Assembly: GCF_004765795.1 (NCBI RefSeq)
Contig: NZ_SBIV01000001.1
Location: 186,001-250,000, forward strand
Origin: Halorussus marinus
GTDB taxonomy: Archaea; Halobacteriota; Halobacteria; Halobacteriales; Haladaptataceae
Length of the DNA stretch: 64,000 nucleotides
Direction: 5' to 3'
Shown here: positions 59,890 to 63,231 of the stretch, in pieces
Position numbering within the stretch: position 1 is the stretch's first letter
Layout of the letters: each line of letters starts with the position of its first letter
The notes under the pieces: generated by a model
What the model saw: only the letters and a program-made list of their open reading frames with translations
What the model was told of the DNA's origin: nothing
The model's database searches: none
Program-made: the position numbers and the translations under genes

Positions 59890-60668
59890 CGGTCCCCCTC
59901 CACGACCTCGGCGAAGTCGTACCGGCCGGGCTCGCGGCCCGCGACCCACGCCGCGGCGTCGAGCGCGCCCTCGGCGAACACGCCCCGGTCTCCAGCGCGG
60001 TGGGTCAGCCGAAGTTCCTCGCCGTCGCCCGCGAGCAGGACCTCGTGCTCGCCGTCGACCGACCCCGCACGCCGGGCGTGGACCCCGATCTCGCCGTCCT
60101 CGCGGGGGGCCTCGCCCTCCCGGCCGTGGACGCGCTCGGCGGGGGCGGCCGACTCGCGGGCGTCGTCGATGGCGTCCACGATCGCGTTCGCGGTCCCGCT
60201 CGGGGCGTCGCGCTTGGCGTTGTGGTGGGTCTCGGTCACTTCGGCGTCGTAGCCCGGCAGGCCGGCGACCGCCGCCTCGACCGCCGACAGTAGCGCCTGC
60301 ACGCCCCGCCCGAAGTTCGACGCTCGCAAGACCGGGGCACGATCGGCCGCGGCCCGGAGCGCTCGCTCGCCCTCGGCGTCGAAGCCGGTGGTTCCGACCA
60401 CGCTCGCGACGCCGGCGTCGGCGGCCGCATCGACGTACTCCAGACTGCTCGCGGGGACCGTGAAATCGACGAGCGCGTCGGGCGAGCGATCGGCGAGCAA
60501 CTCGCGGAGATCGTCGGCGGGGTCGAGCGCGGTCCCGGCGATCGGGCCGTCGCCGGGATCGCGGGAGACGGCGAACGCGACTGACACGTCCTCGCGGGCG
60601 CTCGCGGCGTCGAGCACCGCCCGGCCCATCCGGCCGGTCGCGCCCGTGACTGCGACATCGACACTCAT
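59886..60668 (-). CDS. dapB: 4-hydroxy-tetrahydrodipicolinate reductase
   Basis: GATGRMG, DFT, GTTG, ETHHNAKRDAPSGTA and GEH. Confidence 0.95.
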   Translation of the reverse strand: MSVDVAVTGATGRMGRAVLDAASAREDVSVAFAVSRDPGDGPIAGTALDPADDLRELLADRSPDALVDFTVPASSLEYVDAAADAGVASVVGTTGFDAEGERALRAAADRAPVLRASNFGRGVQALLSAVEAAVAGLPGYDAEVTETHHNAKRDAPSGTANAIVDAIDDARESAAPAERVHGREGEAPREDGEIGVHARRAGSVDGEHEVLLAGDGEELRLTHRAGDRGVFAEGALDAAAWVAGREPGRYDFAEVVEGDR

Positions 60669-61573
60669 GGGTGTACCTCACTCGGTTCGCCCTCTAATTC
60701 CCCGAGGATACCCGCAAGTTCTGCCCGATTACGATCCGAGAGGCGGGTCAACGGCGACCGCACCGCGGCCGGGCCGTACCCCCGAATCTCCATCGCCTCC
60801 TTCACCGGGATGGGGTTGGTCTCGGCGAACAGCGCGCGGAACAGCGGCGCGAGCGCCTCGTGGTGGTGGCGCGCCCGCTCGAACTCGTCGTCGCGGGCGG
60901 CCGCGACCATCGCCGAGACCCGTTCGGGCTCGACGTTGGCGGCGACGCTGATGGTCCCGGTCGCACCGAGCGACAGCGTCGGGAGCGTGAGGAAGTCGTC
61001 GCCAGACAGGACCGAGAACGCCCGATCTCGGGTGCGCTCGATCACCTCGCCGATCCGCCCGAGGTCGCCGCTCGCGGCCTTGTAGCCCGCGACGTTCTCG
61101 TGGTCGGCCAGCGACTCGACGGTCTCGATCGGGACGGGTCGGCCGGTCCGGGACGGGACGTTGTAGACGATCTGGGGGACGTCGAGCTCGTCGGCGATCG
61201 TTCGGTAGTGGCGCTCGATCCCCGCCGGCTCGGGCTTGTTGTAGTACGGCGAGATGAGCAACAGCGCGTCGGCGCCGGCGTCGACCGACCGCCGGGCGAG
61301 CTCGAGCGCCTCGCGGGTGGCGTTGCTCCCCGCACCCGCGACGACGGGCACGTCGACGGCGTCGGCGACCGTCGCCACCACCTCGACGTGCTCGTCGTGG
61401 GTGAGGGTCGCGCTCTCGCCGGTCGAGCCGACCGGGACGAAGCCGTCGACGCCGGCGGATTCGAGGCGTCGAGCGTCGGCTCGGAGCTGTTCGAAGTCGA
61501 TGCTGTCGTCGGGGCCGAAGGGCGTCGTCATCGCGGGGTACACCCCGCTGAACGGATCTGTGGGTCGTGTCAT
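60665..61573 (-). CDS. dapA: 4-hydroxy-tetrahydrodipicolinate synthase
   Basis: GSTGE, PYYNKP, YNVPSRTG, GYKAAS, SGDD and ETNPIPVK. Confidence 0.96.
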   Translation of the reverse strand: MTRPTDPFSGVYPAMTTPFGPDDSIDFEQLRADARRLESAGVDGFVPVGSTGESATLTHDEHVEVVATVADAVDVPVVAGAGSNATREALELARRSVDAGADALLLISPYYNKPEPAGIERHYRTIADELDVPQIVYNVPSRTGRPVPIETVESLADHENVAGYKAASGDLGRIGEVIERTRDRAFSVLSGDDFLTLPTLSLGATGTISVAANVEPERVSAMVAAARDDEFERARHHHEALAPLFRALFAETNPIPVKEAMEIRGYGPAAVRSPLTRLSDRNRAELAGILGELEGEPSEVHP

Positions 61574-61605
61574 CGTGGTGAGTCGGGCCGGTGTGCGCGC
61601 GGTGC

Positions 61606-61637
61606 GAGAACGAGAGTGGCCCGGGACGGGTCGCCAC
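61606..61637 (-). terminator. Candidate attenuator hairpin plus pyrimidine tract in the dapA leader
   Basis: Minus strand GTGGC-GAC-CCG-TCC-CGG-GCCAC followed by TCTCGTTCTC, between the leader stop and the dapA ATG. Confidence 0.35.
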
Positions 61638-61652
61638 GCCGCCGCGGACCTG

Positions 61653-61751
61653 CTAGTACCGGCGTTTTGTGCCTGTCAGCCCGACGAACTCGACCGCCCC
61701 ACCGGCGGCTGGCGAGCCGAACGTGCCAGCCGCGGCGGCGACGGATTCCAT
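61653..61751 (-). CDS. 32-aa leader peptide of the dap/lys operon
   Basis: MESVAAAAGTFGSPAAGGAVEFVGLTGTKRRY*; ATG 25 nt after BRE/TATA CAAAAGAGTTAAG; single Lys codon AAA. Confidence 0.65.
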   Translation of the reverse strand: MESVAAAAGTFGSPAAGGAVEFVGLTGTKRRY

Positions 61752-61774
61752 ATCCGGCACGGCGGTCGCGCCGA

Positions 61775-61789
61775 ACTTAACTCTTTTGA
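61775..61789 (-). promoter_or_regulatory. BRE/TATA promoter of the dap leader and operon
   Basis: Minus strand TCAAAAGAGTTAAGT at canonical distance from the leader ATG. Confidence 0.6.
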
Positions 61790-61851
61790 CCCGCGAACCG
61801 ACGGCTCCGGAGAGTCGGGGTTTTATCAACTCTCCGGACCAACGAAACGTG

Positions 61852-62493
61852 ATGCTCGTTCTCGGAGACGCTCACGCCGACGACCCCGACAATCGGCGCG
61901 GGCTCTTTGCGGCCTACCGGGCGGCCGACGCGGACGTCGCCCTCCAGCTCGGCGACCTGCTCTACTACGACCTGCCGATTCCGACCTACTTCATCGCCGG
62001 CAACAACGAGGACTTCGACGTCATCGACGCGCTCCGGAACGGCCGGGTCGACAGCGAACGGGTCACCAACGCCACCCTGCTCGCGGGCTCGACCGCGGAC
62101 GTCGGGGGAGTGACGGTCGGCGGGCTCTCGGGCAACTACGCCCCGACCCAGTACGAACGCCCGCGGCCGAACCTCCTCGGCGAGCGCCGGCGCCACTTCG
62201 TGAGCGACGACGTCGAACAGGCAAAACAACTCGGCGACGTGGACGTGCTCTTGCTCCACGAGGCACCCCACGGCCTGCCGGTCACCGAAGACTACGAGGT
62301 CGGCTGTGACCACATCGACGAACTGGTCGACGAACTCGACCCCGACCTCTGTCTCGTCGGCCACCACCACGAGCACGCCGAGGGGACCCGCGGAGACACC
62401 CGCCTCGTCAGCCTCGCGCCCGCGTGGGAGAGCTACTACACCCTCGATCCCGACACGCTCGAACTGACCCGCCACGAGACCCCCTCGGCGTGA
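61852..62493 (+). CDS. Calcineurin-like metallophosphoesterase
   Basis: GDAH, GDL, GNNE, LLHEAP and VGHHH motifs. Confidence 0.88.
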   Translation: MLVLGDAHADDPDNRRGLFAAYRAADADVALQLGDLLYYDLPIPTYFIAGNNEDFDVIDALRNGRVDSERVTNATLLAGSTADVGGVTVGGLSGNYAPTQYERPRPNLLGERRRHFVSDDVEQAKQLGDVDVLLLHEAPHGLPVTEDYEVGCDHIDELVDELDPDLCLVGHHHEHAEGTRGDTRLVSLAPAWESYYTLDPDTLELTRHETPSA

Positions 62494-62509
62494 TCGGCCG
62501 CGACGGGCG

Positions 62510-62605
62510 ACTCGCGGGGACACTCGCTTCGTCAGCCTCGCGCCAGCGTGGGAGAGCTACTACACCCTCGATCCCGACACGCTCGAACTGACTCGGTACG
62601 ATACT
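62510..62605 (+). pseudogene. Duplicated 3' fragment (32 codons) of the metallophosphoesterase gene
   Basis: 86/96 nt identical to 62386-62481; no own start codon. Confidence 0.85.
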
Positions 62606-62733: not shown

Positions 62734-63231
62734 ATGACCGAGATCCATCCGAATCAACGGGTCGCCGTCCTCGCGGACGCACAGAACCTCTATCACACGG
62801 CCCAGAGCGTCTACAGTCGGAATATCGACTACTCCGCGCTGCTCGAAAAGTCCGTGCAGGGCCGCGAGCTCACCCGGGCGATCGCCTACGTGATTCAGGC
62901 CGACAGTCCGGACGAAGAGCGGTTCTTCGAGGCGCTCGAGGACATCGGGTTCGAGACCAAGATCAAGGAGCTCAAGACGTTCGGCGACGGGTCGAAGAAG
63001 GCCGACTGGGACGTGGGGATGAGCCTCGACGCGGTGACGCTGGCCAACCACGTCGATTCGGTGATCCTCTGTACGGGCGACGGCGACTTCTCGCGGCTCT
63101 GCTCGCACCTCCGCCACGAGGGCGTCCGGACCGAAGTCACCAGCTTCGCCGAGTCGACGTCCGAAGAACTGCTTTCGGCCGCCGACGCATTCATCGACAT
63201 GTCCGAGCGGCCCGAGACGTTCCTGCTCTAA
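62734..63231 (+). CDS. NYN domain (LabA/DUF88) protein
   Basis: DAQNL, KKADWDVGMSLD, TGDGDF and ADAFID. Confidence 0.9.
   Translation: MTEIHPNQRVAVLADAQNLYHTAQSVYSRNIDYSALLEKSVQGRELTRAIAYVIQADSPDEERFFEALEDIGFETKIKELKTFGDGSKKADWDVGMSLDAVTLANHVDSVILCTGDGDFSRLCSHLRHEGVRTEVTSFAESTSEELLSAADAFIDMSERPETFLL

Follow-up and report, generated by a model that had tools for sequence, protein, structure and literature searches.

Does the short open reading frame (uORF) that lies between a promoter and dapA in Halorussus marinus let the translating ribosome report lysine supply to the operon behind it? The question bears on how archaea fit amino-acid synthesis to supply, and on whether the coupling of transcription and translation serves control there. 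To our knowledge, control by leader-peptide stalling is known from bacteria, and none has yet been shown in archaea. The initial annotation had proposed a lysine-sensing leader-peptide attenuator at this locus, which we analyzed within a window of 64,000 nucleotides (positions 186,001 to 250,000 of contig NZ_SBIV01000001.1, assembly GCF_004765795.1) and compared with related genomes and published data.

The dapA leader in the window and across Halobacteria

Rechecking the coordinates on the minus strand, we recovered the promoter CAAAAGAGTTAAG (61788-61776), the ATG at 61751, the 32-codon ORF and its AAA codon (61667-61665) as first claimed (Table 1). The uORF reads MESVAAAAGTFGSPAAGGAVEFVGLTGTKRRY* and closes with a TAG at 61655-61653; 24 nt separate the TATA hexamer from the A of its ATG, and its peptide matched no NCBIfam family. 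The dap operon downstream of the leader was likewise borne out by an NCBIfam scan of four proteins, all of which passed their cut-offs (dapA 305/206, dapB 207/122, lysA 354/298 and dapF 222/115 bits); two further genes we take to be dapD and dapE from gene order and recall. Among named organisms, the closest DapA sequences come from Halorussus species (77-82% identity).

Table 1 Features of the leader and the start of the dap operon in the window
Feature	Position	Strand	Basis
BRE/TATA promoter of the leader-dap transcript	61776..61788	-	Sequence CAAAAGAGTTAAG; TATA-to-start spacing across loci
Leaderless uORF, 32 codons (MESV...TGTKRRY*)	61653..61751	-	Conservation; H. volcanii homologue starts at a mapped TSS and has ribosome reads
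Putative sensing Lys codon, AAA	61665..61667	-	31 nt before the hairpin loop; spacing and AAA use kept across loci
Predicted P0 basal helix, 5' strand	61658..61664	-	Codons directly after Lys; cognate pairing and fold; footprint assumed
Conserved two-tier hairpin, URGCR loop, loop U at 61636	61618..61650	-	Covariation
Pyrimidine-rich linker, not a U-tract terminator	61604..61617	-	Sequence; U4 runs rare across loci
Predicted P0 basal helix, 3' strand	61596..61603	-	Cognate pairing and fold
C/A-rich spacer without Shine-Dalgarno before dapA	61574..61595	-	0/73 loci with an SD-like word
dapA, first gene of the dapA-dapB-dapD-lysA-dapF-dapE operon	60665..61573	-	TIGR00674 over cut-off; dapA ATG at 61573

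On the plus strand, a divergent metallophosphoesterase-like gene (61852-62493) has its own A/T-rich element, and an NYN-domain gene follows (62734-63231); both are weak NCBIfam matches. An NYN-like gene, HVO_1102, adjoins the leader in Haloferax volcanii too. An imperfect direct repeat of ~85-90 nt, seen by eye at ~62385-62470 and 62500-62592, duplicates the 3' end of the phosphoesterase-like gene.

We gathered 110 loci and made a nucleotide profile from 86 distinct seeds among them; the profile matches 107 of the 110, the misses being two distant DapA loci (~53% identity) and one paralogue. After dropping duplicates and one truncated locus, 103 unique loci were tested by picking the best TATA near the element first and then a start 21-28 nt behind it. 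An ORF of 22-38 codons with Lys among the last 13 was found in 98 of them, and in the five failing loci another A/T hexamer scored best. The TATA-to-start distance is 24 nt in 78 of the 98 and 22-26 nt in all; 37 leaders start with GTG. A further 50 loci (30 best model matches and 20 hand-picked weak matches or misses), 44 of them outside the training set, were run through a pipeline anchored on dapA alone, with the hairpin position unused. The pass rate of the held-out loci was 38 of 44, compared with 19 of 1158 genes of the H. marinus genome. These counts, which measure breadth and are not independent trials because the loci are kin and mostly model-selected, agree with the expectation that the uORF and its in-frame Lys would be conserved in relatives.

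A covariance model matches 132 of 141 Halobacteria genomes, that of H. marinus included. Of the nine unmatched genomes, two lack a DapA orthologue at E 1e-75, and in one a divergent leader satisfies the uORF test (locus L192); outside Halobacteria, one of 102 genomes gave a weak match (E 0.007). Reuse of the hairpin elsewhere in the H. marinus genome was not found (second-best nhmmer match at E 0.022, one covariance-model match). At two deep-branching loci with distant DapA, L028 and L029, the leader is absent and an A/T-rich promoter-like element lies directly before dapA. On this sequence evidence, the window uORF is one copy of a Halobacteria-wide conserved leader.

Within that leader, the Lys codons and their position stand out. 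The putative sensing Lys lies 29-35 nt before the hairpin loop in all 98 passing loci (30-32 nt in 87); the stop-to-loop distance is looser (-3 to 21 nt), and Lys is found at 11 different distances from the start, between 57 and 102 nt. Near-terminal Lys codons number 181 AAA and 11 AAG, against 9 AAA and 307 AAG in dapA of the same loci; held-out loci have 65 AAA and 7 AAG, and AAA occupies the sensing position in 69 of 73 non-redundant loci. Elsewhere in the leader peptides Lys makes up 2 of 1358 residues. Isolated AAA runs, with one, two, three or four codons between Lys, are in frame with the TATA-chosen start in 64 of 64 cases, a test that is partly circular because loci were kept for having Lys. 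Two Lys codons are present in 80 of 98 leaders, three in 7 and one in 11; the single Lys of the window uORF is a minority form, and its TGTK reads as a decayed KRTK of its genus. Arg directly follows Lys (+1) in 61 of 73 loci and Phe stands at -3 in 23 of them. Besides the Lys itself, only these two residues recur in the 73 loci, and a conserved nascent peptide is absent.

RNA structure and transcripts of the leader

Although a hairpin can be drawn at 61637-61616, as first annotated, the conserved fold is a different one: it spans 61650-61618, begins 2 nt after the uORF stop and stands on a basal helix, P0 (61664-61658 with 61603-61596). The hairpin covaries across loci, a check that the initial annotation had proposed: 9 of 12 pairs changed on both sides, 94.5% of cells are paired, and none of 500 shuffles paired as well, with slid controls at 41-56%. 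Because the leader alone is not unusually stable in single-sequence folding (z 0.09 and 0.14 against shuffles), it is covariation alone that argues for the structure. The window loop (61636-61632) carries UGGC, complementary to the GCCA end of tRNA-Lys.

The two strands of P0 are the bases directly behind the sensing Lys and a stretch 22-42 nt past the loop. Cognate pairing exceeds expectation in 43 of 50 loci of less than 80% similarity (0 of 2000 permutations, in a test that ignores kinship), a signal about equal to that of the outer stem as positive control (45 of 50); in the other 7 loci P0 is weak or absent. Four control pairings reached 85-1346 of 2000 permutations; over the seven pairings tested other than P0 and the outer stem the range was 85-1911. 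Candidate antiterminators and start-occluding pairings spotted by eye in individual genera failed across loci. We also folded 72 loci under an assumed ribosome footprint of -16 to +13 around the A site. With the footprint masked, P0 is predicted to have 4.6 expected pairs in the released state and 0.1 in the stalled state; the stalled ribosome would keep both apical stems unchanged and P0 open, a ribosome at the stop codon would melt the outer stem, and release would let all three helices form.

Published H. volcanii data, taken here from excerpts of the papers and their supplements, describe the transcript itself. The transcription start site (TSS) at 1006790, with a coverage of 855 and filed as sRNA HVO_1101s (PMC4983044 Table S1), is the G of GTG, the first base of a uORF (1006790-1006704) whose peptide ends in FFSKKRAY (PMC10117724 SuppTable6). 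Among three table rows naming HVO_1101, none assigns a separate TSS to the dapA start, in keeping with the initial annotation, for which a start directly at dapA would have been damaging. One transcript (1006782-1004090) runs from the leader into dapA (PMC6490895). In rich medium (YPC), RNA rpkm values are 712/668/888 for the leader and 16/85/64 for dapA (PMC10117724), a 44-, 8- and 14-fold step that, coming from one dataset, could reflect stability or short-feature bias. Ribo rpkm values are 311/139/532 for the leader and 96/92/124 for dapA. The evidence for uORF translation is thus mixed in these excerpts: the frame is conserved and ribosome reads are present (139-532 rpkm), yet translation efficiency (TE) is only 0.21-0.60 and the DeepRibo score low (-1.69, rank 7996), and among the rows listed the uORF is found only in the unfiltered table (PMC10117724). 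PMC4983044 cites reporters in which a leaderless GUG gave weak initiation. As for RNA ends, the only one listed is 1006572, 18 nt inside dapA, from an annotation-bound method (DSM) that forces a call behind every gene, and none is listed directly behind the hairpin (PMC7237163, as excerpted); processing sites are reported at 1006703 and 1006720 in the leader, with an uncertainty of 8-13 nt (PMC8303175 supplement).

Sister leaders for other amino acids

Leaderless-type uORFs also precede argG (C2:539208), pheS (C10:96950) and one trpS (C2:437728), all on the plus strand, in the H. marinus genome. The counts that follow draw on relatives, mostly of the same genus. The argG leaders end in Arg runs in 25 of 28 loci, a fragmentary and a weak locus being left out. 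Their terminal Arg codons are CGA in 73 of 84 cases, against 8 of 67 further upstream, and a short helix begins right after the last CGA, with a C/U-rich tract behind it. In H. marinus and at loci L111 and L118-L141, the argG uORF ends in CGA-coded Arg runs (RRRPG) with a hairpin over its stop. We regard the argG leader as a candidate arginine sensor. Phe runs occur in 22 of 30 pheS loci (the H. marinus uORF ends in FDFFFAA) and W-x-W in 16 of 20 trpS loci (WRW in H. marinus); at four more divergent trpS copies no such leader was seen. In H. volcanii, pheS and trpS uORFs in long 5' UTRs are listed without a regulatory claim in the excerpts of Babski et al. 2016 (PMC4983044).

Upstream of lysS, the leuA/ilvB cluster, the three amino-acid-kinase matches inspected and 11 PALP-family genes, we saw no leader of this type; two short ORFs are present among these upstream regions. 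That the leader codon tracks its own pathway is, experiments aside, the strongest argument that codons are sensed. One contig of the H. marinus genome carries, at 69255-69327, a tRNA-Lys(UUU) gene that is the second of its kind and atypical, close to an additional tRNA-Arg(UCG) gene. The pair, possibly borne by a mobile element, reads codons that occur in the Lys and Arg leaders.

Proposed mechanism, rival explanations and known systems

At the level of sequence, the uORF, the Lys frame, the hairpin covariation and the sister codons all support the initial proposal of ribosome sensing at the leader Lys codon, and we consider it very probable that a translating ribosome senses Lys there. For what follows from sensing, we lean slightly towards a ribosome-occupancy attenuator that responds to charged tRNA-Lys and acts through a premature RNA end. 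Transcription would start on the uORF start codon, as observed in H. volcanii and presumed for the window. A ribosome would load at the 5' end and come to the AAA codons, whose fixed distance from the RNA structure is conserved. When Lys-tRNA is short, it would wait with Lys in the A site and, as covariation and the assumed footprint suggest, cover the 5' strand of P0 while the apical hairpin stays; with P0 blocked, transcription would go on into dapA. With Lys-tRNA in good supply, the ribosome would move 2-5 codons further, terminate and leave, the full structure of P0 and hairpin would close on ribosome-free RNA, and most such transcripts would end or be cut in or just behind the leader. The leader peptide would be a by-product. 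The executor would most plausibly be the aCPSF1/FttA cleavage-termination route, or another nuclease. Mutual exclusion of ribosome and aCPSF1 is raised merely as speculation in the excerpt of PMC8116511, and that of PMC13675443 describes aCPSF1 as U-tract-binding. Such an enzyme fits poorly with the U-poor leader, in which a run of at least four U between the hairpin and dapA+40 occurs in only 17 of 73 loci. The occupancy model leaves the URGCR loop and the invariant G-U and C-G pairs unexplained.

The main rival, which we consider unlikely, retains the same lysine sensing and places the primary output at dapA translation initiation: initiation could proceed while a stalled ribosome keeps the region open and would be blocked once the structure closes, and RNA loss would follow as polarity. 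Mycobacterial leaderless Cys sORFs work so (bioRxiv 10.1101/834739, as excerpted), and the published 3' end inside dapA (PMC7237163) would suit it. However, an SD-like word before dapA is found in 0 of 73 loci, where positions -30..-1 are 45% C and 32% A; cognate pairing between linker and dapA start was not found across loci (1911 of 2000 permutations), and the distance from the loop to the dapA ATG varies from 43 to 289 nt. Moreover, the predicted access to the dapA start is nearly the same in all states (0.67, 0.64, 0.62), and dapA TE in rich medium is 1.1-6.0 in the excerpted data (PMC10117724).

A trp-type attenuator of the classical kind, in which terminator and antiterminator hairpins alternate, seems improbable to us. 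The locus has its outline, in that a cognate-codon uORF precedes a GC hairpin and a run of pyrimidines, and hairpins are able to support termination in Haloferax reporters (PMC7237163, as excerpted), but neither hairpin arm has a conserved alternative pairing (mean z -0.18 to 0.25; 1514 and 970 of 2000 permutations), no U-tailed terminator was found on the minus strand, and the excerpted list gives no 3' end behind the hairpin. With U4 runs as rare as stated above, the hairpin-and-pyrimidine terminator implied by the initial annotation finds no support. We give equally little weight to an independent sRNA (HVO_1101s) or basic small peptide acting in trans, with the Lys codons incidental. Its abundant RNA is indeed filed as an sRNA in the excerpted table, its loop is strongly conserved and Arg commonly follows Lys; against this, one published transcript runs on into dapA, the peptide varies freely in both sequence and length, the best model matches adjoin dapA in all 30 top loci examined, and the sister leaders follow their own amino acid. 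Least probable of all is a compact T-box-like RNA with AAA as specifier and a UGGC loop pairing with the GCCA end of uncharged tRNA-Lys: 64 of 98 loops begin with UGGC and in both canonical H. marinus tRNA-Lys genes the discriminator base is G, but in 28 of the 98 the loop sequence is UAGC, which mismatches CCA, the Rfam T-box search gave no match up to E 10, the argG, pheS and trpS leader folds inspected have no such loop, and a strict frame from a leaderless start would be needless.

The occupancy attenuator may extend beyond lysine. In a tentative generalization, to which we grant somewhat less than even chances, haloarchaea would possess several amino-acid sensors, for Lys, Arg, Phe and Trp, in the form of leaderless mini-genes with cognate codons, and in at least the Lys and Arg leaders the helix behind the codon would time ribosome occupancy and pass the RNA on to a cleavage-termination nuclease. 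That would amount to a form of attenuation lacking terminator and antiterminator, and to a direct in vivo use of archaeal transcription-translation coupling.

The literature searched holds no description of a haloarchaeal lysine leader that we could find, and an older one could be missed. The H. volcanii sRNA HVO_1101s is the RNA of the dapA leader, its uORF filed as an sRNA in the excerpted table (PMC4983044). The name was not found in the main texts of the literature searched, and the word attenuation is absent from the main text of PMC4983044. Gelsinger 2020 (PMC7261190) mentions conserved uORFs, the dapA leader not being among them in the excerpt, and its supplement text gave no match. The dapA leader itself suggests that among the sRNAs annotated in haloarchaea some are attenuated leaders.

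The leader is near-universal in sampled Halobacteria, occurs with a mapped start in the genetically tractable H. volcanii, and makes sharp predictions for single codons and base pairs. If the proposal is true, it would provide a lysine leader-peptide sensor in archaea, where the literature searched describes none.

By Rfam, the leader is neither a lysine riboswitch nor a T-box: the search gave no relevant match in the leader, and the nine chance-level matches of the lysine riboswitch model all lie elsewhere. Among archaea, the Methanothermobacter trpY Met-Trp mini-leader is a proposed ribosome-based amino-acid sensor, in which we know of no long conserved RNA structure; it has two codons and controls a repressor gene, whereas the haloarchaeal leader heads a biosynthetic operon. 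Among bacteria, trpL, hisL, thrL, leuL and pheL are uORFs with end-product codons ahead of a biosynthetic operon. The haloarchaeal leader resembles them in having conserved cognate codons before the operon (98/103 and 38/44 loci) at a fixed distance from RNA structure. Unlike them, it is leaderless, has mostly two Lys codons instead of long runs, and comes without U-tailed terminator or conserved antiterminator. In tnaC and mgtL, Rho-dependent attenuation is ribosome-gated; likewise, ribosome residence on the haloarchaeal leader would decide a factor-driven transcript end, with the difference that sensing would be by codon and not by arrest peptide, and that the executor factor would be archaeal. 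The leader would work like a leader-peptide attenuator, yet has neither the terminator/antiterminator pair of the trp type nor the SD sequestration of the Cys type.

Closest in build are the mycobacterial polycysteine sORF attenuators (Canestrari et al., bioRxiv 10.1101/834739, as excerpted). The haloarchaeal leader differs from these in being archaeal, in its probable sensing of Lys, with Arg, Phe and Trp sisters, in having no SD to sequester (0/73 loci, no start pairing) and a helix that stops short of the dapA start, and in the large RNA step between leader and operon. In both, a leaderless AUG or GUG sORF comes first, with the TSS on its start codon (1006790 in H. volcanii, TATA spacing elsewhere) and cognate codons near its end, and the design recurs at several operons; just as a stalled ribosome blocks a helix in the mycobacterial Cys sORFs, so we propose it does in the haloarchaeal leader.
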